64,000 nucleotides of DNA from a virus (taxonomy: Duplodnaviria; Heunggongvirae; Uroviricota; Caudoviricetes), in the IMG/VR virus record IMGVR_UViG_3300033074_000961; one strand, 5' to 3'. The notes beneath the pieces were generated by a model, which was not told the DNA's origin, did not search any database, and saw only the letters and a list, made by a program, of their open reading frames with translations. Position 1 is the first letter of the stretch. Every line of letters begins with the position of its first letter. Positions 10,471-59,655 of the stretch are shown in pieces. The position numbers and the translations under genes are program-made.

Positions 10471-10471
10471 A

Positions 10472-19065: not shown

Positions 19066-19296
19066 TCAAGTTCTTTCTGCAACTTCTTCAAGTTGCTCTG
19101 CCGTAAGGGGTTTCCATCCTTCGATTTTTCCAGTGTCGTTGTCAATGGTGAGGCGAACATAGTCACCACCACCAATGCCAAGGTTGCGAGGCACTTCCCC
19201 ATTATATTCAAGTTCTGTCTCAAGGACTTTCATCCCGAAGCAGTCACTACACTTTGCCACGATTCGTATTTTCATATCAGTTTGTTTGTAGGGCAA
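19066..19296 (-). CDS. hypothetical protein
   Basis: 76-aa ORF. Confidence 0.3.
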   Translation of the reverse strand: MPYKQTDMKIRIVAKCSDCFGMKVLETELEYNGEVPRNLGIGGGDYVRLTIDNDTGKIEGWKPLTAEQLEEVAERT

Positions 19297-19942
19297 CGAG
19301 GCGGTCCAAACCTATGGCAACCTCGAAAACGATACCGTGCTCCCAATCACTACGCACCGAGCACCCCGCCACTTCCAACCCATTCAACTCCCAATCAAGG
19401 GTCTTGCTGGAATAGTGTGGTAATTCTTTTGCTTCAACAATTGTGCCGCCATAGCGTCCCGTCAATGCTGCCAATGCTTCCTCAAGGTACGGAGCTTTTG
19501 TGCCGAGCGAAGTAAAGAGCTGAAACTCCATCTGGTAAAATTGAATTAAACGCAGCTGCGATGCCCTCATGGTGTCGGCACACTTCTCGTCACGGAAGCT
19601 ACACCCGACTTGCCACATGCAGAAAGGTAGATATTTCTTCATTAGTGCCTTGTCGGGGAACTTCTGATCGAAGGATTCGTACGTGCCCACGGTTGTCTCA
19701 GGACGAAGAAAAAGGTTGCGCTCGCTCTTGACTTCAAGCAACTCAAACCCTGTAGCAATGTGAGAAGCAAGACGCTCCCGAGGGACAAGTATTGGCGTCT
19801 CACAACGCTCCATCTTGACGGCGGGATTTAGATTGCGCCAAGTGTCAATAAGCAGAGCGGGAATCTCCCGAATCAAAGACTCACGGCGAGTGATTTCAAA
19901 CTCCGACCAACTGACAGTAGCGTTTGTGAAAATAGGTTTCAT
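19277..19942 (-). CDS. class IIa aminoacyl-tRNA-synthetase-like catalytic core (HisRS/HisZ-like), no anticodon-binding domain
   Basis: Motif 1-like FLRPETT, motif 2 CSFRDE...QFYQMEF, motif 3 AIGLDRLVAL. Confidence 0.5.
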   Translation of the reverse strand: MKPIFTNATVSWSEFEITRRESLIREIPALLIDTWRNLNPAVKMERCETPILVPRERLASHIATGFELLEVKSERNLFLRPETTVGTYESFDQKFPDKALMKKYLPFCMWQVGCSFRDEKCADTMRASQLRLIQFYQMEFQLFTSLGTKAPYLEEALAALTGRYGGTIVEAKELPHYSSKTLDWELNGLEVAGCSVRSDWEHGIVFEVAIGLDRLVALQTN

Positions 19943-21604: not shown

Positions 21605-22771
21605 TTACAAAAGTTCTTTTTCAAAGTATCCATTGACGTACCCTTCAATGTACTTAGCGTGAGCGGGACTGTCTGCCCCTTGCACGTCTCCCGCAAGGAA
21701 ACGAGCAGAGTTCAAACGGTCCTTGTCATAGATACCCGCTTGCATTCCTTCGAGATACTTTTCCTCGTTGTCATCATCGTCGGAAAGGACACCGGCATCT
21801 TGTGCTGCCTGCACCAGTTCATTTGAATTTGGTGAAAGCGAATCTGCCAGTGCAACACCACCAATCACGGCGGGATCACCATTAGGCGCATCAAGACCGG
21901 GAGTCTCCATCGCACGGCATTGTTCACAATCACACCCACAGTTGGGACAGTCAGTACCGCCACAAGTGCAAGAGTTGTCAGTATCAAACTCGGGGTCTCG
22001 GGGTTCAAATTCCGAAGTATAAGTATCAGGCATCGGTCCAGTATATTCACCAATTACCCGATATTTGCAGCAACGAAGTTTCTGGCATGAGCAGTCGGAA
22101 GGCACAGAAACCACGTCGGCGGGGTCAATTTCCACTAGAATCACACGCTCGCCCCAACCACGGGCATAGGCGAGAGAACCAGCGTGCAACCCGAAGGAGC
22201 ATCCATTGCGGAAGTCGTCATCGCACGAGGACCGTTCGATTTCGATAGTTTTCCCGATTTCATTCAAGATATGTCCCTCGGAGTCCGTGACACCTTGAAG
22301 CACCACAGTCTTGGTGTTACCCATCACCGAGTAGAAAGACGAGCGGACACCTTTGTAGGCAATAATCATACCCTCGGGAGTCAGGGGCATGTTTTTGTGC
22401 TCAAGAAAGTTGTACAATTCGTTGATGGCTCGAGCGGAAGGATTCTTCAACTTACGTGCCATGTAATTGGCAATCGGCCTGAAGGGGAGACCATCACGCA
22501 AGAAAGCAAGCACCCGATCCGAATCAACCCCGTGCATCGGACGACCAGCATACGTGACACCTGTAGAATTCACGGAGAGCAACCCCACCGTGTAGTCTTC
22601 CATGACTGCCTTGAGAGAGATAAGGGAGCGAAGCACTGCTTCGTTTCCCGCTTTGAATGCATCCACAATCTCCGTCCACTTGGGATGGTCATTGCGAGCA
22701 GTGAGAATTTCGGAACCACCATTCAATACGAGGGTGAGCGTTCCATTCGTCAAAGACATTGCTGTAATCAT
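21605..22771 (-). CDS. hypothetical protein with Cys-rich segment; possible rIIB-like partner of rIIA (by position only)
   Basis: 388 aa, immediately downstream of the rIIA-like gene. Confidence 0.3.
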   Translation of the reverse strand: MITAMSLTNGTLTLVLNGGSEILTARNDHPKWTEIVDAFKAGNEAVLRSLISLKAVMEDYTVGLLSVNSTGVTYAGRPMHGVDSDRVLAFLRDGLPFRPIANYMARKLKNPSARAINELYNFLEHKNMPLTPEGMIIAYKGVRSSFYSVMGNTKTVVLQGVTDSEGHILNEIGKTIEIERSSCDDDFRNGCSFGLHAGSLAYARGWGERVILVEIDPADVVSVPSDCSCQKLRCCKYRVIGEYTGPMPDTYTSEFEPRDPEFDTDNSCTCGGTDCPNCGCDCEQCRAMETPGLDAPNGDPAVIGGVALADSLSPNSNELVQAAQDAGVLSDDDDNEEKYLEGMQAGIYDKDRLNSARFLAGDVQGADSPAHAKYIEGYVNGYFEKELL

Positions 22772-23056: not shown

Positions 23057-25480
23057 TCAAGCGGCAACTTCGGACTCTTCAACTTTCTCTTCCACAACGG
23101 GTTGTGGAGGAGCTGGCGGGGTCATGTCCCGAGTCAAGTCAATGAACAAGTCCATTGCGTTGACATACTTGGCGACTTTCGCCGCTTCTTCAGGCTTGGC
23201 ATAGTAATCGTTTTCCAAGTTGCTGAAATTGATATAAGGATACATGGCTTTGGCATCTTCCGTAACTTTCTCAAAGTCAATCGTGCCCACAGTCTCACCC
23301 TTAACCTTATCCCAGTAGTGCAGCTCCTTGAGGGCATTCACCAGCTTGAGATAGTTGTCATAATTTTTGTCGCTTCCCGTAGCGATAAGTTTCAACATGA
23401 GACTGTTCTTGTCCATGATTTGTGGAATAAGCAAATCTGCCCACGCCTTTTCAACTACCGTGCTACCATTGAATGCTTCGGCATCCACGAGAGAAGAAAC
23501 ATTCGTGATACCGGGAAGTGCTTCTTCAATGACAGACCAAACGTTGGTCCAATCGCCACAAGAAACCGCTTCCTTGAACCATTTCGCTTCACTGGTTTGC
23601 TTGCCCACGATGTACACCCGAGGCACGTCCAGACCAAGTTCATCCACCAGAACCTTGATGGCTTCGGCAACTTCGTCAGCATCCCGATGCCAGCCATTGC
23701 TCAACTTAACCGTAACACTCGGGTCTTCGGAAGTGTGCCAGCGACGACGGCGACGAGCACGAGTAACTTCACCAATCTCCACGAAGTAAGCACCCTCTTC
23801 GATTTCACGAATGGGCACTTCCATTTCTTCAACGGAGACTTCACCATCAAAATCCATATAACGGAGCGTGCGAGTACCCCCGCCACCGCCACCGTAGGAA
23901 CGAGACACTTTGTTGACATTATTCCACGTTTTCGCAGCGGGAAGGATTTCAGATAGAATCAACACGGGCACAGTATCAAAATGATACTCTGCGAAGAAAG
24001 CATCCCGCACAGTCTGGTTGACGAAGTTGAGGACATGCACCGTGCGAATCTTGGAACCATCCTGAAGAATGAGATACCTAGCGGCAACGGACTGTCCATA
24101 CTTCGCACCAGTATCATTGATGATAACAGCAACTTGATGGGAAGCAACGATGCGGTTGGCACTTTCAGAAGTGCAACGATTCATCTTCGCCCGTTTCTTC
24201 TTCTTGCGATACGTCACCATCACGGGGATAGACGGATTGTGCTTGTGCTTCTGAATGCCGGGGAAGTTAGTGACATCATTATCAAAACGATTGATGCCAT
24301 TAAATCCAGCGTCGTCAATCACAATATCGTTCCACTTGAATGACCCACGGAAGTTGATCTCGATGGACGTGAGATTGCCATCCAAAACCTTAATGCGCTC
24401 AATCGTGTCGGCATCCTCGCCTTTTTCCAGCTCAAGCATACCCGTGCCGAAAAGGGAGTTGTAAATCATTTTCGCTTCCCACACGGTCTTGGCATCGGCG
24501 AACTTCGCTTGGAAGGACTCCTGAATCTTAGCGAAGATGCTTTCAATGCGGTCCATGAGTGCCTTGATAGTGAAGTCGGTGTACTCAAGGGACTCCCGAG
24601 AGTCAACGAACTGAACTTCACCCATCTTGAAGAACAAGGTCACGTCATTGTTCTGGAGAAGGTCAAAGAGACAACGCTTTTGAGCAGTCAGAGACATGCG
24701 CTTGCTAAGGACGTTCCAATCAATACGGTAAGGAACACCGCCCATGAATGCCACGCCCACGGCAGAACCTTCCGAGCGAGGGCGAACGTTCCAACCCTCG
24801 CCTTGCAACGTCGGCGGGGTATTGCGGAATTTCATCATACGATTGAAATGGCTGTCTTCCAAGCGATTGATGGTAGGGAGGACTTCCCAATACTTAAAGT
24901 AATCGGCAGCCTCTTGATGGAAAGTCCACAGAGAAGATTGCTTCACGGGGATGCAGACTTCAATGCCAGAGGGTTCATCCGAAGGAGTGCGGGACAATTC
25001 ATAGACCGTGTGAAGTTTGGTGGAGTCGCCCTTGACACAGTTGTAAACAGCCTTCTCACCATTCACCCAAGACGTAACCGTGAAAGAATCGGCATGAGCA
25101 AATCCTGCCTTGCACCCGTAACCGAGTACGCCGTTCTCGGCAGCAGAGTTGCGCTTGGTGGACAATCCCATGACGCAATAGATGCCACGGATTTGGTCCT
25201 TGGTCAGTCCAGAACCGAAGTCACGGACTTTGAAGGTGAAATCTTCCATCGTCGGGAGAGTAACGATGACTTCGGAAGTTGGTTTGCCAGCGACAATGTG
25301 AGCATCGTTGGCGTTGTTGGAGTATTCACGGACAGATGCCAGCTCTTTGCGAGTGTACATCTTATCCGAGAGGGATTGCATGATACGGGCCTTGGTGTCA
25401 TCCGTAAAGTCGAAGTTTCCAACCACTTCAACCCCCATACCTTGCGTTTCAATCGTTTGCGGCGTTTCGTTCGGAATCAT
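23057..25480 (-). CDS. rIIA: rIIA-like protein with N-terminal GHKL (Bergerat-fold) ATPase domain
   Basis: N-box SNNANDAH, G1 VRDFGSGL, G2 LGYGCKAGF; 807 aa. The pattern matches my recollection of T4 rIIA (ITNMIDAH / CRDFGPG / FGLGSKSPF). Confidence 0.55.
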   Translation of the reverse strand: MIPNETPQTIETQGMGVEVVGNFDFTDDTKARIMQSLSDKMYTRKELASVREYSNNANDAHIVAGKPTSEVIVTLPTMEDFTFKVRDFGSGLTKDQIRGIYCVMGLSTKRNSAAENGVLGYGCKAGFAHADSFTVTSWVNGEKAVYNCVKGDSTKLHTVYELSRTPSDEPSGIEVCIPVKQSSLWTFHQEAADYFKYWEVLPTINRLEDSHFNRMMKFRNTPPTLQGEGWNVRPRSEGSAVGVAFMGGVPYRIDWNVLSKRMSLTAQKRCLFDLLQNNDVTLFFKMGEVQFVDSRESLEYTDFTIKALMDRIESIFAKIQESFQAKFADAKTVWEAKMIYNSLFGTGMLELEKGEDADTIERIKVLDGNLTSIEINFRGSFKWNDIVIDDAGFNGINRFDNDVTNFPGIQKHKHNPSIPVMVTYRKKKKRAKMNRCTSESANRIVASHQVAVIINDTGAKYGQSVAARYLILQDGSKIRTVHVLNFVNQTVRDAFFAEYHFDTVPVLILSEILPAAKTWNNVNKVSRSYGGGGGGTRTLRYMDFDGEVSVEEMEVPIREIEEGAYFVEIGEVTRARRRRRWHTSEDPSVTVKLSNGWHRDADEVAEAIKVLVDELGLDVPRVYIVGKQTSEAKWFKEAVSCGDWTNVWSVIEEALPGITNVSSLVDAEAFNGSTVVEKAWADLLIPQIMDKNSLMLKLIATGSDKNYDNYLKLVNALKELHYWDKVKGETVGTIDFEKVTEDAKAMYPYINFSNLENDYYAKPEEAAKVAKYVNAMDLFIDLTRDMTPPAPPQPVVEEKVEESEVAA

Positions 25481-25542
25481 AGCGTTTTGTTTTTGTCGTG
25501 TTGTTATGACTGATTTCGGGTCAGTCGTTTCTTATTACGCTA

Positions 25543-25574
25543 CAACTATAGCATACCCATTGAGGATGTCAACA
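25543..25574 (-). promoter_or_regulatory. σ70-like promoter (TTGACA-N16-TATAGT) with upstream A/T tract, ahead of the rIIA-like gene
   Basis: ctttttttattttcgctgTTGACAtcctcaatgggtatgcTATAGT on the minus strand. Confidence 0.45.
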
Positions 25575-25606
25575 GCGAAAATAAAAAAAGTTTCGGGCGA
25601 TGTATG

Positions 25607-26188
25607 TCATTGTTTATCAACGACATCCAATCTTTCGGCATCGTCCATTCTGGCAGAAATACCATCGCAAAGATGGAGCAACCAAGCAACTCGGGTCTTC
25701 GGTGCTACAGGACTTCCTGCCTCACGTCTTCCGTGATGGGCGAGAATAGCATGAAGAACCCGATCATGATACCTTTCATTGACATCAGGATACTTACTCA
25801 CGCAATCATGCCAGATGATACATGAACGGGGGAGATGGTGGATAAGCCTTCGGTGCTCGGCAGGTTTCCACACCTTCAACTCCCCTTGAAGCTCCATTGT
25901 ATAATCAAACATTTTACCCGTGTCGTGGAATAGTGCTGCCAGATAAAATTCAATTGGGTCAACCTTGTCGCAGAGATTGAGTAAAGGAATTGCCCATAGT
26001 CCCAACTCAATGATTTCGGTGGTATGGCGTAACAATCCACCCTCTTCATAGTGATGAAGCATTTTGTTATGACTACCCGCCCAATACTCAAATTGAGGAT
26101 ATTGAGATAGCAATTCGTTGAAGACTAGTTCTACGTTATGCTGTCTTGCCCGGGCACGGAGCAGTTCTATTCTTGGGACTTGGTTCAT
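25607..26188 (-). CDS. HD-domain phosphohydrolase
   Basis: H...HDTGK...HH...D arrangement: LRHTTEI, ALFHDTGK, AILAHHG, LHLCD. Confidence 0.6.
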   Translation of the reverse strand: MNQVPRIELLRARARQHNVELVFNELLSQYPQFEYWAGSHNKMLHHYEEGGLLRHTTEIIELGLWAIPLLNLCDKVDPIEFYLAALFHDTGKMFDYTMELQGELKVWKPAEHRRLIHHLPRSCIIWHDCVSKYPDVNERYHDRVLHAILAHHGRREAGSPVAPKTRVAWLLHLCDGISARMDDAERLDVVDKQ

Positions 26189-26634
26189 GATAGATATTTC
26201 AAGGCAAAGTAGTTGATGACTAAGTGGAGGAAATTGTCATGGACGATGTACAACCATGCCGAAATAAAGAACAGGCGTGGTTTGTAATACAAATCAGTTG
26301 ACCCATCGCCCGAGGTTGCCTTCGTGGTATTGAAGGGGCTGTCATCATAATATCCCGTGGTGTCGCACTTGGCATATTCGGGATAGATAAACTTCGGATT
26401 CAAGTGACCACGCAACCAGATGAAACGCTTGAGTGGAGTATGGAAGCGGTCAAGTAGGAAGTGCGTTGCTCCAATCACGAGCAGTGCTTTCCAACTAGTA
26501 GTAAGTAGCAAAAAACAGGCAGTGTAAATGAGAACATGCACTAAACATGGAATAGTGCGTTTAGACTTGTTCAATGCCATCCAGTCGGATTGCAGAACAT
26601 AATCACCCATTAGATGAACGAGGAGCTGCTCCAT
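26185..26634 (-). CDS. membrane protein
   Basis: Hydrophobic helices. Confidence 0.4.
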   Translation of the reverse strand: MEQLLVHLMGDYVLQSDWMALNKSKRTIPCLVHVLIYTACFLLLTTSWKALLVIGATHFLLDRFHTPLKRFIWLRGHLNPKFIYPEYAKCDTTGYYDDSPFNTTKATSGDGSTDLYYKPRLFFISAWLYIVHDNFLHLVINYFALKYLS

Positions 26635-27196
26635 TTAACATACTTATCTTACATTGAGTGTTTTCCAGAACTTCACCGCCGCACTCAAAGGTTCCGGTGA
26701 TGAAGACATCATTGATACCTTTCAACGATAACGAGTCTATACTACGAAAATACCCCACGTTTGTCAAGGAAAGATTACCCGTCATTTGGGAGAAGACCCA
26801 TTCATTCTCAAAGGTCTTCTTATAGACTGCCTTTGGACCAGTGAAGAACATGGTCTTGGTATGGTGTCGGTGATTAACTCCCGGCGAGAATAGTTCCTTG
26901 ACCTTTTCTATTTTAGAATCATACTCTTGCTGCTTCTTTTCTGCTTTGATGTTTCCAAGGTAATAGTCAACATATTCCATTGAAGCATAGAGAACGTCGT
27001 CGCCCAATCCTTGTCCGTCCATTTCGGTAAGGTAGTCATTGGGAACTACAAGAATAGGAATACGAAAAGGTTCTCGGGAGACGAGACGGCAATCCCGTGT
27101 TCTTAGAGTCGGTGATGCCAAGCACTCGGGATATTCAAAGACTTGTTCAATCTTTCCGCTTCTCGGGTCTTTCAATAGAAACAGTTTGAGTAACAT
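26603..27196 (-). CDS. hypothetical protein
   Basis: 197-aa ORF. Confidence 0.4.
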   Translation of the reverse strand: MLLKLFLLKDPRSGKIEQVFEYPECLASPTLRTRDCRLVSREPFRIPILVVPNDYLTEMDGQGLGDDVLYASMEYVDYYLGNIKAEKKQQEYDSKIEKVKELFSPGVNHRHHTKTMFFTGPKAVYKKTFENEWVFSQMTGNLSLTNVGYFRSIDSLSLKGINDVFITGTFECGGEVLENTQCKISMLNGAAPRSSNG

Positions 27197-27437
27197 TTTT
27201 TGGTGGGTAATTCACTACAAGATTAACTTGTTCACTTGCCTTTTGATGGTCTATGATTTTTTGTACTAAGTCTTGAAGTTCTTTATGAATACGCTCGGGA
27301 CTATTCCATAAGGGGTCTCCGCTACATGGACAACGACACTTACTGCCGCCAAAATGACCGGGAGGGGCGGGATGCCCTAATTCGCAGTTTCCATGATTAC
27401 CGTTTTCGCACGCCTGACAGTAGTAGAGGTAAACCAT
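27147..27437 (-). CDS. hypothetical Cys/His-rich protein
   Basis: CQACENGNHGNC...CRCPC. Confidence 0.35.
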   Translation of the reverse strand: MVYLYYCQACENGNHGNCELGHPAPPGHFGGSKCRCPCSGDPLWNSPERIHKELQDLVQKIIDHQKASEQVNLVVNYPPKNVTQTVSIERPEKRKD

Positions 27438-27438
27438 A

Positions 27439-27891
27439 TCAGTCGTAGTTACAGATGGTTAGCTCTATTGGACAATCACCGAAAAGATCACCGATTATTG
27501 CCCTAACTATGTCCCAAGACCCACCGCCAAGGCGACAACCCATGTTCTTGGGCAGTCCGAGACGTTGGACGTTTGCTTGTAGGGCGTGCTCTCTGACTAA
27601 TTCGAGACCCGTATAGAGTGCTTCATAGTTAGTATTGCGCTTCCATCCCCCAAAGTTGAACTGACCATAGACATTGTAGATATATTTATCATCATGTGCC
27701 TTTACCACAGACATCTTACCAAGGCGAGATACATCACCTTTTCGTCCATGTTGAAGGTCTGCCTTATACGCTTCGGGATACTTGGCACGAATGGCAGCGG
27801 CAATGCCAGCTCCCATTGTGTGAAAGCAGTTGCATTGGTGCCCGAACCCGTCAAGCGGGTGTTCTAATAAGTTGGCATCTACTTCAATAAT
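27439..27891 (-). CDS. macrodomain protein (ADP-ribose binding/processing)
   Basis: DGFGHQCNCFHTMGAGIAAAIRAKYPEAY matches the macrodomain nucleotide-binding loop. Internal start MIIEV chosen. Confidence 0.6.
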   Translation of the reverse strand: MIEVDANLLEHPLDGFGHQCNCFHTMGAGIAAAIRAKYPEAYKADLQHGRKGDVSRLGKMSVVKAHDDKYIYNVYGQFNFGGWKRNTNYEALYTGLELVREHALQANVQRLGLPKNMGCRLGGGSWDIVRAIIGDLFGDCPIELTICNYD

Positions 27892-28094
27892 CATTGCTTT
27901 ACGAGTGATTTGTACGTGCCAGCGGGACATCCGCCACAATCCACCTTGCCACAACCGAGGCAACGTTCTTCATTGACAACCTTATACTTTTTTCCATTGG
28001 GGTTGCACTTACCACAGGCATAAGGTATGTCGTCAATGATAATGAAGCGAAAGTTTTCGCAGCACGGGCATTCAGATTTCTTCTTAGTCGCCAT
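27891..28094 (-). CDS. Cys-rich small protein
   Basis: CPCCEN...CGKC...CLGCGKVDCGGC. Confidence 0.35.
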   Translation of the reverse strand: MATKKKSECPCCENFRFIIIDDIPYACGKCNPNGKKYKVVNEERCLGCGKVDCGGCPAGTYKSLVKQ

Positions 28095-28416
28095 CTGGTT
28101 TCTTGCTCACTTCTATGGGAGGGACTTCAAATCCTTCGCACCGACCTTCGGTGTTTATCTTACATCGGCTGGGAACCATACACTTCTCACCATGATTGTA
28201 TCTACATCCTGTCGCTTTACAATCAATATCTTCCCAATCCCGAGAGACGGGAAACCCATAGGGGCGACGTTCCCTTGGCATCAGACCAAGAACTTGTGGT
28301 CCATCCAGAAAAGCACGTTGCTTGTCCAAGTCTTCCATTAACCTTTCCGAAACTGTCTTACCACAGATGCAGCATCCACCACCATCACTATCATATTCAC
28401 AGGTATGGTCACTCAT
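28084..28416 (-). CDS. Cys-rich hypothetical protein
   Basis: CCICGKT, CRYNHGEKC. Start trimmed to MSDHT to avoid overlap with mazG. Confidence 0.35.
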   Translation of the reverse strand: MSDHTCEYDSDGGGCCICGKTVSERLMEDLDKQRAFLDGPQVLGLMPRERRPYGFPVSRDWEDIDCKATGCRYNHGEKCMVPSRCKINTEGRCEGFEVPPIEVSKKPDGD

Positions 28417-28417
28417 A

Positions 28418-28741
28418 TCACAGATGATATTTACTGCCCCAACGCTTCGAGACAATGTTGAACTTTTCAATGAGTGCCGCTTCCATATCAATATCCAGTT
28501 GGTCTGATAGGAGACTGAGGTACGTCAGAATGTCAGCAATTTCATGTGCCATCTTCTTCTTTGGAATCTTGTCACCCCGAGAGAGCTTCTTGAGATAGTT
28601 GCACAATTCGCCCACTTCACCCGCCAGCGCACCACCCCATGACAGAGGTATCCAAGTGTGCGAGTGCTTAATGTCGGCACGGGCACGGGCAGTGTTTATC
28701 TTGTGAAACTTGCAGAACGTCAATGCTTTCTTCTTTTTCAT
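28418..28741 (-). CDS. MazG-like nucleotide pyrophosphohydrolase
   Basis: EVGELCNYLKK...EIADILTYLSLLSDQLDIDMEAALIEKFNIVSKRW. Confidence 0.65.
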   Translation of the reverse strand: MKKKKALTFCKFHKINTARARADIKHSHTWIPLSWGGALAGEVGELCNYLKKLSRGDKIPKKKMAHEIADILTYLSLLSDQLDIDMEAALIEKFNIVSKRWGSKYHL

Positions 28742-29172
28742 ACTTTATCCCATTTGAATGCTGTTCGGGGCACCTTGAAGAATAGTTCACCACTCTTCAC
28801 GAACTTGTTTGGACTTTCCTTCAACGTATCTTCGGTTAGATGCTTCCGCAGCTCTTTACCGCTTATCATCCCGATACGAGTGAAGTCTCGGGAGAGAATA
28901 ACATAGCAAACGCTATTCTCCACGAAGAACTTTGCCTTCCTTTCGGGGACATTCACTTCCGCAAACGGAAACTCGTCAGAGTCCCAAACCAATCGGTGCT
29001 CCACTTCTACCTTGAGTGTACCATCTTCGGAGATTAAGTCAACCCCAAACTTGTTGGGGTTGTCGTCCAATGGCATCTTATTTTTGGCAAAGTACTCTTT
29101 GACCACCTTCCGTGACTTCGGATCATTCCGTTGATGAAGGGACTTGCTGAACTGTTTGTATTCACCCTTCAT
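28738..29172 (-). CDS. hypothetical protein
   Basis: 144-aa ORF. Confidence 0.4.
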   Translation of the reverse strand: MKGEYKQFSKSLHQRNDPKSRKVVKEYFAKNKMPLDDNPNKFGVDLISEDGTLKVEVEHRLVWDSDEFPFAEVNVPERKAKFFVENSVCYVILSRDFTRIGMISGKELRKHLTEDTLKESPNKFVKSGELFFKVPRTAFKWDKV

Positions 29173-30332
29173 TTCTTTAACGATTTATGATATGCTAACA
29201 AACCCAAAACCTTTTGAACGATCTTGGACATGCCTTCAGGAGTGCCATCAAACACTTCGTAGCACTCACCAGCATCATCCAAAGTATCCAGAATCATATT
29301 GTCTAGTGCTTTAGCTTCATCAAATCCGTGAATACGACCTTTGGGGTTGAATTTCTTCACCCTTTTAATAAAAGCATTGTAGGTCCACATTTTGCGATGT
29401 TCTTCATAGACCAGTTGCTTCAATGTTTCTCGCTTCTCTCCATCATAGACCACCGAGAGCAATAGCGGACTGTCAGTAATGACAACTTCCACTTGCCCCA
29501 AGAGACGGAAGATACGATGATGCTGCTTGCCGAAGATGTACACTTGGTTCTGGAAGGTGCGATGACGTTCTTCCCAAGTAAGGTCTTTGGCGTACTCAGC
29601 AGCGAGTTCGCAGTTAATACCACGACTCTTTAGTTCAAAGAATAGACCAGCTGCCGTGGTGCTCTTACCTGCTCCCGGTCCTGCGAACAAATTGACCACG
29701 AGAGTTTGTTTACGTGCTTCTTTTTCAAATGTCTCAACGACAGAGCGCACTTCCAAATCATCTTTGCGGCGTTGTTCCTCAATGGTTTCTTCAATTAACT
29801 CATTGAGTTCGGCGGCGTCCTGTTGGTCAAACAAGTCTTCAATCATGGCATCCAACCCACCATTGTCACCCCTCTTCTCTTCCTTATCCAATTTCTCAAG
29901 ATAAGCACGCTCGCTTTCTTCTTCACGTAAGCGACGTTCTCGGTCATCCAAAGCATTGGCCACGTTGCGCTTTGCACAAGCACATGAATGCTTGAATTCA
30001 AAATCATCCGAATGTTGTTTTACAAGGTCTTCCTCAACTTTCGCCGAAAAGAAATCCTCATACAATTCGTTGAGCGTCGGTTCTTTATTCAATCCAAGTC
30101 GTTCTCTTACCGTTTCTTTTGAACGGGGTTGAAATGTTTCTTCATCATTGAAGAAAGCATCAAATGCTTTAGATAGTTCACTTCGTTGTTGCATAGATTT
30201 TGGACAGTCGCAAGTTATTCTGTGTGCTGCATAATGTACCTTCCCACAGTAGGGACATCTCCACATTGGGTCTCCGCACGGCATACAGTTATTTCTTTCT
30301 CTTTTTGGTAGAAGTCTTTTTGTTCTTCTCAT
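29169..30332 (-). CDS. P-loop NTPase/kinase-domain protein with N-terminal zinc ribbon and acidic coiled coil
   Basis: Walker A NLFAGPGAGKSTTA in the C-terminal half. N-terminal CxxC...CPYCG. Confidence 0.5.
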   Translation of the reverse strand: MRRTKRLLPKRERNNCMPCGDPMWRCPYCGKVHYAAHRITCDCPKSMQQRSELSKAFDAFFNDEETFQPRSKETVRERLGLNKEPTLNELYEDFFSAKVEEDLVKQHSDDFEFKHSCACAKRNVANALDDRERRLREEESERAYLEKLDKEEKRGDNGGLDAMIEDLFDQQDAAELNELIEETIEEQRRKDDLEVRSVVETFEKEARKQTLVVNLFAGPGAGKSTTAAGLFFELKSRGINCELAAEYAKDLTWEERHRTFQNQVYIFGKQHHRIFRLLGQVEVVITDSPLLLSVVYDGEKRETLKQLVYEEHRKMWTYNAFIKRVKKFNPKGRIHGFDEAKALDNMILDTLDDAGECYEVFDGTPEGMSKIVQKVLGLLAYHKSLKK

Positions 30333-30897
30333 ATGGAGGAATCAAGTCGGAGGGTGTAAGAGGTTCATCTATTCCCTTCCAAGCACGCTTGGGGTTCTTC
30401 CGACTCTGTTTGACCTTCTCCATAAGTGTAATCATCTTCTTGTCGGTCTTGATGTTTTTCTTGTACTCGTCGGCACAGAAAATACAAAGAGATTGAATCC
30501 ATCCCTTATCGGTGCGACCAACGAATTGGTCAAATTGACCACAGTTTTCGCAAATGTAATGAGATTGGTATTCGGCAAAGGAAATAGCATTTCTGATATA
30601 ATCATCCCCACCTTCGTAATAGATACGGAGTGCGCCAAACTTCTCTTTTATTTGGTGAAAGACAACTTGAGGCACTTCGTCTTGTTCCACGCCAAGTTTT
30701 TTCCACTTCGCCGCTTGGTCAATGTGGTATTGAATAGCGTCACAAAGAGTATTCAGCAAGAAGAACCAACCATCGCCACAGGAGCATCCCCATGCCATAC
30801 AGGTCTTCTTCGGATCGCCATACATATCCCGAAAGAGTTTCGGGTATGTCTTCACTAAATGTTTTTCTAAAAGGGCATTCATATTATTTACGAGCAT
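30289..30897 (-). CDS. Cys-rich hypothetical protein
   Basis: CSCGDGW...CENCGQF...CIFCADEY. Confidence 0.4.
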   Translation of the reverse strand: MLVNNMNALLEKHLVKTYPKLFRDMYGDPKKTCMAWGCSCGDGWFFLLNTLCDAIQYHIDQAAKWKKLGVEQDEVPQVVFHQIKEKFGALRIYYEGGDDYIRNAISFAEYQSHYICENCGQFDQFVGRTDKGWIQSLCIFCADEYKKNIKTDKKMITLMEKVKQSRKNPKRAWKGIDEPLTPSDLIPPYEKNKKTSTKKRKK

Positions 30898-31228
30898 TCA
30901 TGGGATAACACTTCAAACAAGGAATGACTTCAATGCTGTTCGCTTTGAATCCAATATATCCTCGCCCGTAGCATTTCTTACAATTTGCCTTGGGAGCAAA
31001 TGGTACTTTGAGTTGCGTCTCCTTCTTCACGTCTTTGCCCGTCTTCTCGTCCTTTTCATACTTGACGACTGTGATGGTCTGAGGTCCACGCTTTGGAGCG
31101 GGAAGTCCCGTTACATCTTCAACAAGTACATACTCTGACGGAGGGGGTGCTTGTTGTTTTGGTGCTTGGGGAGTATAAACCAGTGGTGCTGGCGTTGCCG
31201 ATGCTTCTTGTTGTTTCACGTCTTCCAT
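30884..31228 (-). CDS. Pro/Ala-rich protein with C-terminal zinc ribbon
   Basis: CKKCYGRGY...CLKCYP. Confidence 0.4.
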   Translation of the reverse strand: MEDVKQQEASATPAPLVYTPQAPKQQAPPPSEYVLVEDVTGLPAPKRGPQTITVVKYEKDEKTGKDVKKETQLKVPFAPKANCKKCYGRGYIGFKANSIEVIPCLKCYPMNARK

Positions 31229-31316
31229 ATGTCTAAGTAGTACGAGGAAATGAAAATCCCTCAGTGTAGTGGTATTCTACACCGAGGGATTGAAACAGTC
31301 AACTTATTATAACCAC

Positions 31317-32492
31317 TTACTTCGTGGCTGGAGTGGGAGTATTGACGATAGGAGCACCCGTCAAAGTATCAAGACCCTTCACGTAGTTGTCCGTGAGAAT
31401 GTTGACCTTCATATCGGCGGGGAGATACCCCTTGATGCCACTAATGCCCGTTCCGAGACTCTTGGCAACTTCTACCTTCACCCAATTTTCAGAACCGGGA
31501 ACGGCATATGCCTTGAGCAAGAGTTCTTGAGAGGCGGCGGTTGCTTTACCCATAGCGATAACACCTTCGGCCTCGGCAATTTTCTGCAACTTTTGACCTT
31601 CACCCTTTAGCTCCGCTTGCTTTTTCTCTGCTTCGGCAGCAATGGTGACTTGTTCGGCAGAAGCCTTAGCGGCGATAACAACCTTCTCGTTTTCTGCTTG
31701 AGCGTTAATGACCATAATCTTGGCATCACGCTCGGCACCCACGACTTGAGTATTCAAATCGGCTTGTGCCTTTGCCTTGGCAACCAATGCTTCGGCAGTA
31801 GCAGCTTTCTCTTCCTCAACAGCACGTAGTTGCTTTTGCGTAGCAATCTGCTTTGCCTTGATTTCTTCAATGTACTTCGGGTCAAGTTCAATATGCTCAA
31901 TCACGAAGTTTTCTACAATGACACCACGCTCGGCGAGTTCATCGGTTTCTCTCTGGTCTTTGCCTGAGAGAGCGTCTTGAATTTCAGCTTGTAATTTGAC
32001 AAGACCATCACCAGAATAAGCATCAATAGCTTTCATCTTGGTTGCCTTGTCCTTGACGACACGCATGACCACAGGACGGATAATCTTGTCTTCCACGTCC
32101 TGACGAACGGTTTTGTGAATCATGACCAACTTGACGGGATCGAGACGCCAACGAAGATTCAAGGAGATTTTCATATCCTGTCCTTCTTGAGACTGGACGA
32201 GATAAGCATCACGATCACGCCCGACACCTTTTTCACCACCACCTTCGGTCTTGTCATTCATTACAAACACCTGCGAAGCAGCGTCGTACTTATAGACAGT
32301 TTGAGACCAACCCGGGAAGAGGAAATATGTCTTGGGTTGCATGACGGTTTCTTCAACACCACTCGCCCATGTTTCCTTAATGCCGAGTTGATTACCCTCA
32401 ATAGTAACCACCTTGAAGGTCAGGAGGGTAACGACCAAGGCGATGAGCAACACGATGCCGCTCACGATTAACTTGACTGGACTCTTATTCAT
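31317..32492 (-). CDS. SPFH/band-7 (HflK/C-, stomatin-like) membrane protein
   Basis: N-terminal TM LIVSGIVLLIALVVTLL, band-7 core, long Ala/Glu/Lys coiled-coil. The ORF may extend to 32669. Confidence 0.55.
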   Translation of the reverse strand: MNKSPVKLIVSGIVLLIALVVTLLTFKVVTIEGNQLGIKETWASGVEETVMQPKTYFLFPGWSQTVYKYDAASQVFVMNDKTEGGGEKGVGRDRDAYLVQSQEGQDMKISLNLRWRLDPVKLVMIHKTVRQDVEDKIIRPVVMRVVKDKATKMKAIDAYSGDGLVKLQAEIQDALSGKDQRETDELAERGVIVENFVIEHIELDPKYIEEIKAKQIATQKQLRAVEEEKAATAEALVAKAKAQADLNTQVVGAERDAKIMVINAQAENEKVVIAAKASAEQVTIAAEAEKKQAELKGEGQKLQKIAEAEGVIAMGKATAASQELLLKAYAVPGSENWVKVEVAKSLGTGISGIKGYLPADMKVNILTDNYVKGLDTLTGAPIVNTPTPATK

Positions 32493-32562
32493 ACTTGTTT
32501 GTGTGTTTGTTTGCTTACTGTTGATTTGTTTACCGAAATCTTCTGTTGGATATAGCTCAGTG

Positions 32563-32802
32563 CTATTCCGACTTCGGGGTTTTCTTGGACTTGGCATTTG
32601 TTTGCGTTGTTTTGGTTGGTTGTTCTGTTGATGGTTTGCTGCGAATAAATGATACCGTCCAATAAGCAAACCAACAAACGCCTATAGCTGATACCATATA
32701 CCACACGTTTCGGAGAGGGCGAATGCCTTCACCAACGGCGATGAAGAGCAATAACCAGATGACTCCCAAAATACAAAGGATTGCGAATTTTTTGTCTTTC
32801 AT
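32563..32802 (-). CDS. small membrane protein
   Basis: Two hydrophobic helices. Internal start MKDKK. Confidence 0.35.
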   Translation of the reverse strand: MKDKKFAILCILGVIWLLLFIAVGEGIRPLRNVWYMVSAIGVCWFAYWTVSFIRSKPSTEQPTKTTQTNAKSKKTPKSE

Positions 32803-32809
32803 AACTTGA

Positions 32810-33502
32810 TTATTGTTGACCGGGACTTGATGGGATATGGTGTCTGTCAACCGCCACAAACTGCTTCTTATTCATGATAGCAGTAATCTCGGCGAGAGAC
32901 AGAGGCTTCTTGTGTCCATCCCAACCACAGTCAAGAATCTTGCCGTGAGTGTTTGCATCGGCAGTGGACGGAGGATACCCATAATGAGAATGCCCGCAGA
33001 GCATCCAAGCTCCGTGCGACATCTCATTCCACACGCCAATAGGATAATGACACAAAATTGTGTACTGACCATTCAAGACAGCTTCCACGTAATGACCGAG
33101 AAAAGTCATATTCTTATACTTGAATGGATAGACCTCGGGCGGGAAAGGTCCGTGGTTGTTCGCCAAGACTCCCCGAACGAGCGTCTGATATACCTTCTTC
33201 TCGTGGGGGTTGTTGTGGTTGCCCCAGAGAGCAAAGATGTTCTGACACTGGAAAAGGTCCATTTGTGCATCAAATTGTTCCTTGGTAGTATTCAGACACC
33301 AATCCCCGAGGAAGATAAGAATGTCCGAAGGACGAACAATACTGTTCGTCACGTCAACAATCTGCTTAGTCATATCCTGTGCCGATTCATATCCCCGCAT
33401 CTTCCAAATGGGGACTGGCCAAGACTTCGGGTCGTGATTCAGATGAAAATCCGAACTCACGTAAATCTTTTGACTATCCGTTTCTCTTAGATTCATTAAC
33501 AT
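32810..33502 (-). CDS. calcineurin-like metallophosphoesterase
   Basis: DFHLNHD, GDW, GNHN, GHSH motifs. Confidence 0.6.
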   Translation of the reverse strand: MLMNLRETDSQKIYVSSDFHLNHDPKSWPVPIWKMRGYESAQDMTKQIVDVTNSIVRPSDILIFLGDWCLNTTKEQFDAQMDLFQCQNIFALWGNHNNPHEKKVYQTLVRGVLANNHGPFPPEVYPFKYKNMTFLGHYVEAVLNGQYTILCHYPIGVWNEMSHGAWMLCGHSHYGYPPSTADANTHGKILDCGWDGHKKPLSLAEITAIMNKKQFVAVDRHHIPSSPGQQ

Positions 33503-33503
33503 A

Positions 33504-34136
33504 CTAGCGTTTTCCTAATGCGATAAACTGCTTGAAGACGGCAGCAGTTGTCTTTGTGTCCACACTTGCATCGTGCAAGTCGCCGTCAATCGGGATATTG
33601 AAATACTTTGCCAGTGCTCCTACGCTTCCATCCGTGTCCATCGGCATCTTACCACAAGCACGAAGGAATTGGAGCACAACACTGGTATCCAGATAGTGAT
33701 AGGTACAGAACTGTTCCCATGACCCCGTTGAAATGAGGTACTTCAGAACGAATTCAATGTCACCCTTCACACCATGCCCAACGGGGGTTACACGATGAAC
33801 CTTGCCGTGAGTCTGGAGGAAATTAAACAACAAAGGCTTTGCCTGCTTGTAGGGGATGGCAATCTTGTCGTGCTCGGCAAGATTGATTTTGTTTACAGAC
33901 ATGCCTTGCCCACTCACGATGTAATCTCCATCGTCAGGCTTCACTGCCAGCGACAATTCCCCAAGGGGATTCATGTCGGCGTCAGTAACGAGGAAATAGG
34001 CAGTGAGAAGGGAATACTTCAAGTCCCTTCCACCCATTTCACAGTCAAGATGGAGGTATTTCATCATGTTGCCGCACATTATACGACAAGCACGCCAGAA
34101 GTCAAGCCCTTTTGATAAAGCGGTCAATTTTCGCAC
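33504..34136 (-). CDS. DEDDh 3'-5' exonuclease (DnaQ/RNase T/oligoribonuclease-like)
   Basis: Exo I YLHLDCEMGG; Exo III HDASVDT. The true start may be an internal Met. Confidence 0.55.
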   Translation of the reverse strand: MRKLTALSKGLDFWRACRIMCGNMMKYLHLDCEMGGRDLKYSLLTAYFLVTDADMNPLGELSLAVKPDDGDYIVSGQGMSVNKINLAEHDKIAIPYKQAKPLLFNFLQTHGKVHRVTPVGHGVKGDIEFVLKYLISTGSWEQFCTYHYLDTSVVLQFLRACGKMPMDTDGSVGALAKYFNIPIDGDLHDASVDTKTTAAVFKQFIALGKR

Positions 34137-34581
34137 GTTTCCACCATCTCAAGACTCTCCCCGAAGCAGGAGCATGACCACTTGAAGCTGCCTCTTCCAC
34201 AACATGATCCACCTTCAATCCCTTTTCTACTTCACCGAGGCGCAACCGCCCTACCAGTATAAAGTCGGTGGGTTTGTGTAACCATCCCTCTTCTGTGACA
34301 TTGGAATCAAACACTTTCTTGGGAGGGTCTGCTATGACTTTATCTTTGGTCCGATAGATTCGTAAACGAGCATCAAGATTGTATGGGATAGCGGTAATAC
34401 ATTGCTCTATTGAGGGAGAGACACAAATTCTATTACCATCTGGTTCATCACCGCCACGATTGAATCCATCTTCACGGGGTACAAGATGCACCCACTTATA
34501 GTTCAGGGTAGTGGATACGTGATACCAATACCGAGGGTAGGTATAAATAGATCTCTTACGAGACCGTCTCCTTGCTGCCAT
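34102..34581 (-). CDS. hypothetical basic protein
   Basis: 159-aa ORF. Confidence 0.35.
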   Translation of the reverse strand: MAARRRSRKRSIYTYPRYWYHVSTTLNYKWVHLVPREDGFNRGGDEPDGNRICVSPSIEQCITAIPYNLDARLRIYRTKDKVIADPPKKVFDSNVTEEGWLHKPTDFILVGRLRLGEVEKGLKVDHVVEEAASSGHAPASGRVLRWWKRAKIDRFIKRA

Positions 34582-34592
34582 ACTACGTTTTC

Positions 34593-35051
34593 TTAGGGGT
34601 GAAGCGGTAAGTCGCCCACCAGCATTTCTCTATCGGGACTATCATCAGCGATGAATAAGTACCCGCAAGTGAGTTCGTTTCTGAACAGAACCCACCGACC
34701 ATCTTCGTTTATGATTGCATCTGCCGTAAACGTGCGGCGGTCAATTAACTGAGCAATTTCTTCGTGGAGGGAATAACCATACTCAGGATCATATACTAAT
34801 CCCGCAGGCCATCCCTTCTTCAATGCTGCCTTGATAACTTCTGCCAGTTGAATTTTGTTGGCAGACAGACAAATCGTTGTACCAAATCCCTTGGCATCAT
34901 GTTGCCATTCTTTCACCCGAGGATGCTTGGGATACTCGAAAGTGAACTGGTTCGCCGCATGTGCGGCGTGTGCCATACCCTTACCGGGATTCAGCGAGGG
35001 CAAGTCATTACGCATCAAAATGTATAGGCGATGATTGGAACGTTTCTTCAT
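34593..35051 (-). CDS. peptidyl-tRNA hydrolase PTH2-family protein
   Basis: LYILMRNDLPSLNPGKGMAHAAHAA parallels the PTH2 VVRxDLxMxxGKxAAQxxHAA motif. Confidence 0.5.
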   Translation of the reverse strand: MKKRSNHRLYILMRNDLPSLNPGKGMAHAAHAANQFTFEYPKHPRVKEWQHDAKGFGTTICLSANKIQLAEVIKAALKKGWPAGLVYDPEYGYSLHEEIAQLIDRRTFTADAIINEDGRWVLFRNELTCGYLFIADDSPDREMLVGDLPLHP

Positions 35052-35230
35052 TCTGAGTCCTCTTCCTCAATCACCTTTTTCTTTCGGGGTGAGTGATTAT
35101 GGTAATGCTTGTGGATATTGATAATCCCTTTCCAAGGCCAATCACCAATCCAAAAGCTTGCAAAGGCGATGATACCTACAATGGATACTACTGCCGAGGG
35201 CCATGAGACTATTTCAGCTAACATAATCAT
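35048..35230 (-). CDS. small membrane protein
   Basis: Single TM helix. Confidence 0.3.
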   Translation of the reverse strand: MIMLAEIVSWPSAVVSIVGIIAFASFWIGDWPWKGIINIHKHYHNHSPRKKKVIEEEDSE

Positions 35231-36366
35231 TTCTTTCCTTGGAAGCAGTTGTCGGGGTCAATGTTGGCGTAGTTCGGAGTCCCAAGACCCGTCAAACCAT
35301 TGTAGCAGAAAGTTACTTCCTGACCAACCCATTTGTCAGTGTTCTTCAAAATCTCACGACGAGTCTCTTGCGAACCCTTAAATGTTGCATTGAATGTCTT
35401 ACCCTTCCACTTGATTTCGGCAGTGGCAGCGAGTCCGCTTGCATTCCCCGTACCTTCAAAGATGGTGAGAATGATACCTTCACTGTCATCAGTGGGCTTC
35501 ACCTTGAGAAGGTTGTATGAACGTTTGTGCTCGTAAGGAGCATTGCAGTTGCGAATGATAGAACCTTCATATCCATCCTTCACGTCTTCATCATAGATGG
35601 CGTACACATCATCCAATGTAGTCGCAAGACGATACGGCACCCACACTACGTACGGAACCTTATGCAACAGTTCTTTGAGTGCCTTGCGGCGTTCGAGATT
35701 GCCCGTTTGGGCAGTGATGCCTTCAAACCCATAACCATCGTACACATAAAGGCGCACGATTTGCTCTGAGCGGCGAAGCAACTCAGGAGTAATCTTGGAC
35801 TGCTTGGTGGTCCGCAGAATGGACATGAGTTCATTCAACTTAAACCGAAGGTCGTGGTTATATCCCTCACCATCCAAAAGGAGATTGGGATACTTATCAA
35901 ATAGGGGTTCAATTGCTTCCCAAATGTGGGGAATGGATGCATATTGCTCGCCCTTACGGGTAAAGAGTCCCCGTGCTTCTCCCACAACACGCCCACCGTT
36001 GTACTTCTTATCAACCATACAAGGTAGTTGAACCTTATCGGCATGGTCACGAAGCTTGTGGGCAAGCATCGGTTCAATGAACCGAGCGGTCTTGTCAATA
36101 TCCTTGATGTCTTCCCAATACCCTTCCCGCTTGATTTTCTTCTTCCACTTGGAATCTGCTTCCAACTGAGCCTGTTGCTCGTCAGTCGTCTCGTTTGCCT
36201 GACCTTTGTTCTTACCAGTACAAACAGACCACTTGGACGTTATCATATTGGGACTTCCCATTTTACCAACGATGGTTCGGTACTTGTTACCCTTAACCTC
36301 AATGCGCCATTCTTGGACAGATCCATCGCTATTGCGAGAGTAAAGTTCTGGATATTGGAGTATCAT
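35227..36366 (-). CDS. ATP-dependent DNA ligase
   Basis: EPMLAHK, motif I KKYNGGR (Asn in place of the usual Asp), motif III LLLDGEGY, motif IV EGSIIRN, motif V LLKVK. Confidence 0.6.
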   Translation of the reverse strand: MILQYPELYSRNSDGSVQEWRIEVKGNKYRTIVGKMGSPNMITSKWSVCTGKNKGQANETTDEQQAQLEADSKWKKKIKREGYWEDIKDIDKTARFIEPMLAHKLRDHADKVQLPCMVDKKYNGGRVVGEARGLFTRKGEQYASIPHIWEAIEPLFDKYPNLLLDGEGYNHDLRFKLNELMSILRTTKQSKITPELLRRSEQIVRLYVYDGYGFEGITAQTGNLERRKALKELLHKVPYVVWVPYRLATTLDDVYAIYDEDVKDGYEGSIIRNCNAPYEHKRSYNLLKVKPTDDSEGIILTIFEGTGNASGLAATAEIKWKGKTFNATFKGSQETRREILKNTDKWVGQEVTFCYNGLTGLGTPNYANIDPDNCFQGKK

Positions 36367-59620: not shown

Positions 59621-59655
59621 CAACTGACGATAAAACGCTAAACTCAAGCACAATT

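Follow-up and report, generated by a model that had tools for sequence, protein, structure and literature searches.

A Tk.4/AdfM-family macrodomain protein of an uncultured large phage: fold, active site and gene context

The DNA analysed here is a 64,000-nucleotide stretch of a Caudoviricetes virus (IMG/VR record IMGVR_UViG_3300033074_000961; hereafter the window), and its element of interest is a minus-strand gene for a macrodomain protein related to Tk.4 of phage T4 and gp104 of phage PhiKZ, for which we favor a role in removing DarT-made ADP-ribose (ADPr) from phage DNA. The window comes from a large lytic phage, with rIIA, rIIB, DNA ligase and thymidylate synthase (ThyA) as marker genes; its G+C content is about 46%, and no tRNA genes were found in it by ARAGORN. 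A megablast search of positions 25000..35000 against 50,697 phage records (GenBank phage collection) returned no match, and the phage is therefore without a close sequenced relative in that collection. Metagenomic relatives of the macrodomain protein (48–88% identity) lie on contigs of up to 236–369 kb, which suggests that the lineage is probably one of jumbo phages.

The macrodomain gene and its product

Every gene around the macrodomain gene is on the minus strand. The ATG of the macrodomain gene (27894..27892) overlaps the TGA of an upstream 67-residue open reading frame (ORF) as ATGA, and its own TGA (27441..27439) is followed one base on by the ATG of the next gene, at 27437; the gene thus stands in a tightly packed string that is presumably co-transcribed. 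The ATG at 27894 is preferred because the ATGA junction and the lengths of homologues (150–153 residues) agree on it. A TTG start at 27963, giving 174 residues, was rejected for its 70-nucleotide overlap with the upstream ORF. The original prediction, made from the sequence without database searches, had given the gene as 27439-27891, which is correct at the lower end and 3 nucleotides short at the other. The 67-residue ORF is Cys-rich and has no Pfam match, nor has it a homologue near the macrodomain gene in the 82 related loci described below; it is one of three small Cys-rich ORFs with zinc-ribbon-like CxxC motifs that flank the macrodomain gene (27147..27437, 27891..28094 and 28084..28491, all on the minus strand), none of which is matched in Pfam. 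The nucleotides preceding the macrodomain ATG (27895..27910, cgtaaagcaATG) contain no recognizable Shine-Dalgarno sequence, a weak hint as to the host; another weak hint is that a homologue with 54% identity (P0066) is on a 203-kb contig labeled as a Bacteroidales metagenome-assembled genome.

A macrodomain had been proposed for this gene from its loop peptide GFGHQCNCFHTMGAGIAAAI, and the proposal is borne out by profile, model and structure comparisons. The Pfam Macro profile hidden Markov model (PF01661) matches the protein with 35.9 bits (E = 7.9e-9, cut-off 22) over profile positions 3–117, covering 115 of 118 positions. The AlphaFold2 model, with 82 homologues as input, has a mean predicted local distance difference test score (pLDDT) of 92.8 and a predicted template modeling score (pTM) of 0.89; its six strands and four helices form a predicted three-layer α/β/α fold with a central mixed sheet, as also indicated by Foldseek. 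In the Foldseek comparison with the PDB, the best match is human TARG1 (OARD1; 4J5S; E = 1.9e-12, TM 0.81–0.87, 28% identity), with Thermus aquaticus DarG (E = 1.6e-11, TM 0.84), BT1257, Poa1p and Mycobacterium tuberculosis DarG among the other best matches. There are 173 PDB matches at E ≤ 0.001, and the best 50 of the 173 are macrodomains or designs on that scaffold. The identity of the 151-residue protein as a macrodomain is therefore well beyond chance.

With respect to class, Foldseek ranks 1–14 are occupied by TARG1, DarG, BT1257 and Poa1p, and chikungunya virus nsP3 first appears at rank 33. In sequence comparisons with the PDB, SCO6735 of Streptomyces coelicolor (5E3B) is the top match (36.5 bits, E = 4.5e-8), and TARG1, DarG and BT1257 are matched as well. 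Because its nearest relatives in both sequence and structure are TARG1, DarG, SCO6735 and BT1257, the protein belongs to the ALC1-like class and not to the MacroD/YmdB, PARG or viral Mac1 classes. The labels "RNase III inhibitor / YmdB" and "O-acetyl-ADP-ribose deacetylase" carried by database relatives are generic names in the style of COG, which we did not adopt, since the protein is not of the MacroD/YmdB kind by sequence or fold.

Relatives, active site and proposed function

The family of the macrodomain gene is very common among phages, and the gene is an ordinary representative of it. The window protein falls, with T4 Tk.4 and PhiKZ gp104, into phrog_335 (E = 5.9e-44 for the window protein), and a tblastn search found relatives in 2,717 of the 50,697 phage records, all at less than 60% identity and many of them T4-like, annotated as "tk.4 phosphatase". 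Published figures put macro domains in about 40% of medium-sized phages and 56% of jumbo phages (PMC9503650). By BLASTP the window protein is 31% identical to Tk.4 (E = 2e-21), with the motif CNCFHTMG[AS]G in common, and 24% identical to gp104 (E = 7e-11).

Functions were assigned to the T4 and PhiKZ proteins in 2025–2026. A transposon screen on a host expressing DarTG2 gave T4 tk.4 as its sole significant hit, and the gene was named adfM; its clean deletion makes T4 sensitive to DarTG2 (bioRxiv 10.1101/2025.11.20.689424). [quoted passage not shown] Among cellular relatives, SCO6735 cleaves thymidine-linked ADPr-DNA more efficiently than DarG or TARG1 and rescues Escherichia coli from DarT, and the substitutions Q85A, Q85E and N27S inactivate it; the mechanism proposed for it is water-mediated, with the Gln positioning the distal ribose (PMC9411070). 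TARG1 also removes thymidine-linked ADPr (PMC13036486).

Like T4 Tk.4, the window protein is a stand-alone phage protein of about 150 residues in the same PHROG; both have the motif H-x-C-N-C-F-H-T-M-G-[AS]-G, a Gln in place of the Lys at the catalytic position, and a Gly-rich second loop followed by W. Unlike the window gene, T4 tk.4 sits between vs and tk.3. The macro part of DarG is the only family that the window protein matches in NCBIfam and PADLOC (56.5 and 62.8 bits, respectively), and against these two DarG profiles it outscores Tk.4 (30.3 and 36.0 bits) and is outscored by gp104 (137.8 and 132.9 bits). As do the DarG2 macrodomain (5M3E, 5M3I) and gp104, the window protein has the macro fold and the conserved Asn (N22 in DarG, N23 in gp104), and the same job is proposed for it; DarG and gp104, however, have the catalytic Lys in F-P-T-K, where the window protein has Y-G-Q. 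In addition, DarG has a second, DarT-binding domain and adjoins darT, and the window protein has neither. Gp104 enters the phage nucleus, and nothing of that kind is indicated for the window protein. A DarG2 antitoxin proper was considered and rejected, the protein being a single domain with no darT neighbor and no catalytic Lys, and its score being 56.5 bits against a cut-off of 250; the match to the DarG2 profile (NF048014) spans only positions 5–143 of 338. The ORFs adjacent to the macrodomain gene (the small Cys-rich ORFs, MazG, and ORFs of 96 and 197 residues) gave no ADP-ribosyltransferase (ART) match in Pfam or PHROGs.

The putative active site was analyzed in an alignment of 82 homologues (33–88% identity to the macrodomain protein). 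The first loop has N22, C23, G30 and A32 in every homologue and H19 in 77 of the 82; it aligns with HGCNCFHTMGSGVA of T4 Tk.4 and HVCNDLGGWGKG of SCO6735. The equivalents of Asn22 are needed for activity in DarG (N22; PMC13309987) and in SCO6735 (N27; PMC9411070). The Gly-rich second loop, which corresponds in the alignment to PRIGCGLAGGTW of SCO6735, shows no variation at P115 and G124 and hardly any at G119, G125 and W127; position 121 varies (R/V/K/G). The two loops predicted to bind ADP-ribose are both conserved. At the position of the catalytic Lys, Gln78 is invariant (82/82). Two types can be distinguished in this column: a Lys type, with F-P-T-K in the DarG proteins of T. aquaticus and M. 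tuberculosis and in PhiKZ gp104 and with I-T-K in TARG1, and a Gln type, with Y-[GT]-Q or I-G-Q, comprising the window protein, T4 Tk.4, SCO6735 (Q85) and BT1257.

His24, Asn27 and Gln85 of SCO6735 correspond to H19, N22 and Q78 of the window protein, and BT1257 of Bacteroides (2FG1/2AFC) is a further ALC1-like protein of the Gln type; judged by SCO6735, a Gln-type active site is capable of activity. SCO6735 is a cellular, chromosomal protein, whereas the window protein is from a phage. The mobile loop of SCO6735 is longer in the alignment and carries Lys89 and Lys94; the loop that follows Gln78 in the window protein is shorter and carries K85 and R86, and 75 of the 82 homologues have R or K at position 86. 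TARG1 (4J5S) is of similar size to the window protein, but its catalytic dyad Lys84/Asp125 is replaced by Gln78/Gly123. Fold, family membership and active-site conservation are shown for the window protein.

We lean towards the view that the window protein is a stand-alone phage ADP-ribosyl glycohydrolase, acting like an orphan antitoxin as a DNA de-ADP-ribosylase against DarTG2, of the same kind as T4 Tk.4 (AdfM). This reading is based on the homology to Tk.4/AdfM and SCO6735 and on the strictly conserved Asn/Gln active site; thymidine-linked ADPr on DNA as the substrate, and a role against DarTG2, are suggested by the homologues. The host toxin DarT2 would spend NAD+ to place ADP-ribose on thymidine of single-stranded phage DNA and so block replication. 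The ADP-ribose would be held in the macrodomain cleft made by the HxCN...GxG loop and the Gly-rich PxxMGCxLGGGxW loop, and the bond between thymine and ribose would be hydrolyzed to give free ADP-ribose and intact DNA, such that the phage would escape DarTG2 as though it carried an orphan antitoxin. Catalysis may be SCO6735-like, with Gln78, held by Asn22 (a putative contact read from the alignment alone), positioning the distal ribose and water acting in place of the Lys of DarG and TARG1. The window protein is a single-domain protein encoded in a co-directional, tightly packed string of early-type genes, which fits the expectation for a phage counter-defense gene. The original prediction had offered reversal of ADP-ribosylation, such as DarT-type DNA modification, as one role for the macrodomain and degradation of ADP-ribose-derived immune signals as another; by analogy with Tk.4 and SCO6735 the former is the best supported, and the signal-degrading block envisaged around the gene is not supported (see below).

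Several points weigh against a DNA de-ADP-ribosylase. Identity to all characterized homologues is low (31% to Tk.4, 29% to SCO6735 and 24% to gp104), and the evidence for T4 Tk.4 itself comes from a preprint and is genetic only, its biochemistry being inferred (bioRxiv 10.1101/2025.11.20.689424). The catalytic Lys of DarG and TARG1 is absent, with Gln78 in its place, and two SCO6735 residues are not kept: Lys34, which with Lys89 serves to position DNA (Ala29 in the window protein), and Gly128 of the phosphate loop (Arg121, at the variable position). Ala also occupies the Lys34 position in PhiKZ AdfM, which is active. SCO6735 and TARG1 have further substrates, namely Glu-linked ADPr on proteins (for SCO6735, Glu/Asp-linked ADPr of PARP1 E988Q; PMC9411070) and uracil-linked ADPr on RNA (PMC13036486); therefore DNA need not be the sole or main substrate of the window protein. 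Finally, the phage encodes a PARP of its own, and in some relatives a PARP gene adjoins the macrodomain gene.

With these results, a likely anti-DarTG2 factor can be added to the annotation of an uncultured lineage of large phages. The macrodomain gene on its own is ordinary, and the leads of greater interest are the existence of two active-site types in phage AdfM proteins and the PARP and NAD+ salvage context. The two types are a Lys type (PhiKZ, DarG-like) and a Gln type (T4 Tk.4 and the lineage of the window, SCO6735-like). Because the Gln type resembles SCO6735, the water-mediated mechanism put forward for that enzyme probably operates in the T4-type AdfM as well, which may thereby have a broader substrate range encompassing DNA, RNA uracil and protein Glu.

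Table 1. Features of the macrodomain gene and of other genes in the window
Feature	Coordinates	Strand	Basis
Macrodomain gene, 151 residues; stand-alone, AdfM/Tk.4-type, of the TARG1/DarG/SCO6735 (ALC1-like) class	27439..27894	-	ORF, Pfam, PHROG, AlphaFold2, Foldseek
First ADP-ribose-binding loop (predicted), residues 16–35, GFGHQCNCFHTMGAGIAAAI; His19, Asn22, G-x-G	27790..27849	-	Homologue alignment
Gln78 codon, at the position of the catalytic Lys in DarG (K80), TARG1 (K84) and PhiKZ AdfM (K78)	27661..27663	-	Alignment
Gly-rich phosphate-binding loop (predicted), residues 115–127, PKNMGCRLGGGSW	27514..27552	-	Alignment
67-residue Cys-rich ORF, translationally coupled to the macrodomain gene	27891..28094	-	ORF list, ATGA overlap
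WGR-helical-PARP catalytic protein	59584..60918 (likely ATG 59653)	+	PF00644 80.7 bits; WGR 22.2 bits
Ribose-phosphate diphosphokinase (Prs-like)	2724..3686	-	Pfam Pribosyltran_N 147.6 bits; NF002320 324.5 bits (cut-off 297)
NAD+ synthase (NadE)	9691..10470	-	PF02540 163 bits; TIGR00552 165.5 bits
Nicotinate phosphoribosyltransferase (PncB)	10678..11874	-	NF003704 391.7 bits (cut-off 379); TIGR01514 348 bits; Pfam NAPRTase
RfaE-domain-II-like adenylyltransferase	15005..15490	-	Part of the NAD+ gene set
Isochorismatase-like, candidate nicotinamidase (PncA)	17119..17997	-	Weak Pfam match, 21.6 bits; PDB nicotinamidases E = 7e-5
NMNAT + Nudix bifunctional protein (NadM-like)	18015..18944	-	NUDIX 54.3 bits; weak CTP_transf_like; NCBIfam NMNAT/Nudix models sub-threshold
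HD phosphohydrolase	25607..26188		PF01966 31.2 bits; like the HD domain of the 3'-5' exoribonuclease YhaM
MazG-like pyrophosphatase	28418..28741	-	PF03819 22.4 bits (cut-off 22); phrog_229 E = 1.8e-6
P-loop kinase	29169..30332		Only phrog_2107 E = 8e-14 and sub-threshold AAA_28
Metallophosphoesterase	32810..33502		Only phrog_547 E = 1.3e-34
DEDDh exonuclease	33504..34136		phrog_192; PADLOC DEDDh E = 1.3e-7; PDB oligoribonuclease E = 1.9e-5
rIIB	21605..22771	-	Gene near the macrodomain gene
rIIA	23057..25480	-	Gene near the macrodomain gene
ATP-dependent DNA ligase	35227..36366	-	Gene near the macrodomain gene
Thymidylate synthase (ThyA)	37708..39006	-	Gene near the macrodomain gene

NAD+ and ADP-ribose genes and the phage PARP

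The window encodes a near-complete set of NAD+ genes (Table 1), which together could turn ADP-ribose and nicotinamide into NAD+ in a Preiss-Handler-type manner; the described phage NAD+ reconstitution pathways, NARP1–3, do not include such a gene set (PMC13464706). It also encodes a WGR-helical-ART protein with an H-Y-E triad (FHGT...GIYGA...DELIVY), for which the PDB entries of PARP1 and PARP2 give E of about 5e-14 with coverage from WGR to ART, and which is a candidate for the phage's own ADP-ribose writer. In 82 loci with a macrodomain homologue, the recurrent neighbors within 10 kb are Prs (20 loci), NMNAT-Nudix (13) and the nicotinamidase-like protein (9), followed by PncB, NadE and PARP (4 each), and all of these are also encoded in the window. 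On one 369-kb contig (loci L017/L018) the genes for the macrodomain, PARP, Nudix, nicotinamidase-like protein, PncB and NadE form a single co-directional cluster of about 10 kb, in which the PARP gene starts about 250 nucleotides downstream of the macrodomain ORF on the same strand. In locus L014 a PARP gene lies 2.5 kb downstream of the macrodomain gene, and in L026 a divergent PARP gene (27% identity) lies 1 kb upstream, with a nicotinamidase-like gene adjoining the macrodomain gene. Conversely, when PARP loci were taken as the starting point, a same-strand macrodomain gene within 10 kb accompanied 9 of 33 (about 6 distinct, and including PARPs of 24–27% identity). Two distant PARP loci carry a macro-like match upstream of the PARP match and on the strand of the latter, with its start only about 240 nucleotides away in L122 (~9759..11212) and 1.4 kb away in L098 (7801..10479); these arrangements could be adjacent gene pairs or even fusions.

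The presence of a complete WGR-helical-ART PARP and its proximity to the macrodomain gene in these loci raise the alternative that the macrodomain erases the marks that the phage's own PARP makes on proteins (the PARP itself, host or phage proteins) or DNA ends, removing the terminal ADPr as TARG1 and SCO6735 do when it is linked to Glu, such that the modification would be reversible or self-damage would be limited; the activity of SCO6735 on Glu/Asp-linked ADPr of PARP1 E988Q is consistent with such chemistry. The link between writer and eraser has real but minority support. In the window itself 32 kb separate the two genes, which are on opposite strands, a PARP gene is found within 10 kb in only 4 of the 82 macrodomain loci, and 24 of the 33 PARP loci have no macrodomain gene nearby. 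Moreover, the linkage occurs mostly in related lineages and may be synteny inherited within an island of NAD+/ADPr genes, and the macrodomain genes of T4 and PhiKZ show their DarTG2 phenotype without need of a PARP partner. We therefore regard dedicated erasure of phage PARP marks as unlikely, although it is the alternative with most in its favor.

A wider form of this proposal gives the phage a self-contained ADP-ribose economy with the macrodomain as its eraser, in which the DNA-break-sensing WGR-PARP would write, the Gln-type macrodomain would erase phage- or DarT-written ADPr, and NAD+ would be rebuilt. For the last step, Nudix would yield ribose-5-phosphate, Prs would convert this to phosphoribosyl pyrophosphate and the nicotinamidase would supply nicotinate, with PncB, NMNAT and NadE then acting in turn. 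A return of ADPr to NAD+ metabolism by phage Macro and Nudix enzymes has been proposed previously (PMC7824862; PMC9503650); the recurrent NAD+/ADPr neighbors support that older proposal and point to a possible further phage NAD+ reconstitution route. As an account of the window protein the complete scheme appears doubtful.

It is less probable still that the macrodomain acts on small soluble ADPr derivatives, e.g. ADP-ribose-1''-phosphate (as does yeast Poa1p), O-acetyl-ADP-ribose, or immune signals such as gcADPR or His-ADPR, with free ADP-ribose recycled to NAD+ by the phage Nudix, Prs, nicotinamidase, PncB, NMNAT and NadE. Degradation of soluble ADPr signals by phage Macro domains has been suggested from comparative genomics (PMC7824862; see also PMC9503650), the family bears the historical annotation "phosphatase / A1pp", and Poa1p, a weak sequence match (20 bits, E = 0.004), is matched by Foldseek (E = 3e-10) and shares the H-x-C-N-C motif. 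That NAD+/ADPr genes are the most recurrent macrodomain neighbors also agrees with such a function, but may equally reflect a common "NAD+ conflict" island. The closest characterized relatives (Tk.4, SCO6735, DarG and TARG1) work on ADPr linked to macromolecules, and the literature cited here shows no macrodomain that cleaves gcADPR or His-ADPR. Among the Pfam matches listed for the window (25 of 29 families) there is no KptA/Tpt1 or 2H phosphoesterase, the makers of ADP-ribose-1''-phosphate.

Hydrolase neighbors and other genes of the window

The original prediction placed the macrodomain in a block of nucleotide-processing genes comprising an HD phosphohydrolase, MazG, a P-loop kinase, a metallophosphoesterase and a DEDDh exonuclease, and proposed that the block degrades nucleotide immune signals. 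The five genes are found where they were placed and their folds are roughly as described, with uneven support, the kinase and the phosphoesterase being identified by PHROG matches only. The phosphoesterase has no Pfam match and no PDB sequence match, the kinase has no PDB sequence match, and Pfam gives no match for the exonuclease or for the ORFs at 26603..27196, 28738..29172 and 30289..30897. The five are scattered among about 20 ORFs over 8.5 kb, which include an SPFH gene, a DUF3307 gene, small Cys-rich ORFs and several ORFs without an assigned function.

A search of the 82 loci (±10 kb) with all 20 proteins of the region shows that this arrangement belongs to a lineage. Loci L003, L005, L009, L012, L014 and L022, of the window's own lineage, preserve all or part of the order ligase-PTH2-exonuclease-phosphoesterase-SPFH-...-MazG-macro-...-DUF3307-HD-rIIA-rIIB, and MazG, the nearest of the named neighbors, lies directly upstream of the macrodomain gene in L003/L004. 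Outside the lineage the association vanishes: in the 82 loci the kinase is found near the macrodomain gene once, HD twice, MazG 6 times and the exonuclease 8 times, and the 27 loci with a phosphoesterase match show varying distances and low identity (23–57%). T4 tk.4 and PhiKZ gp104 are surrounded by unrelated genes. Within the region, a strong terminator-like hairpin (31255..31291, minus strand; 15-bp stem, AATCCCTCGGTGTAG...CTACACTGAGGGATT, with a T-rich tail) is overlapped by a 10/12 promoter-like site (31255..31302, minus strand) between the SPFH gene and the ORF at 30884..31228; this is likely a boundary between transcription units, predicted from sequence, with the phosphoesterase, exonuclease and SPFH genes on one side and the unit of the macrodomain gene on the other. 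Because the association disappears outside the lineage, AdfM genes elsewhere stand amid unrelated genes and the hairpin splits the region, the "hydrolase block" is lineage synteny of a phage early/auxiliary region; a conserved module was rejected on the synteny of the 82 loci.

It is accordingly very improbable that the macrodomain works with these five enzymes to destroy cyclic oligonucleotides, gcADPR or (p)ppApp, even though all of the genes exist, run in one direction and fit within 8.5 kb, and even though a signal-degrading role in jumbo phages has been suggested for calcineurin-like and HD enzymes (PMC7824862): no member of the block matched a known signal-degrading anti-defense enzyme in searches of Pfam, PHROGs, NCBIfam, PDB and PADLOC, and the exonuclease and the HD protein look like RNases (oligoribonuclease-like and YhaM-like, respectively).

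Several other genes in the window were recorded. A minus-strand gene at 46186..47193 encodes an N-terminal DnaJ domain (54.6 bits) joined to a eukaryotic-type Ser/Thr Pkinase domain (122.5 bits), an unusual fusion for a phage. Among the NAD+ genes, all on the minus strand, are a gene for a 574-residue protein with weak similarity to Kdo/WaaP-like kinases (12201..13925), and genes for a PP2C-type phosphatase and a VWA-domain protein (13922..14701 and 16333..17082); the three could form a kinase/phosphatase signaling set. RNA repair is represented by an RNA ligase (4546..5184, minus strand) and a polynucleotide kinase-phosphatase (62423..63415, plus strand), and translation by a PTH2-like peptidyl-tRNA hydrolase (34593..35051, minus strand) and a core fragment of a class-II aminoacyl-tRNA synthetase resembling glycyl-tRNA synthetase (19277..19942, minus strand). 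Further Pfam matches in the window include Thg1, EF-Ts, SpoU methylase, DHFR, His_Phos_1 and DUF4326. A Dam-like D12-class N6-adenine DNA methyltransferase is encoded at 56330..57274 (plus strand), together with two N6_N4 DNA methylases in the window, and the three genes suggest heavy DNA methylation as an anti-restriction measure.

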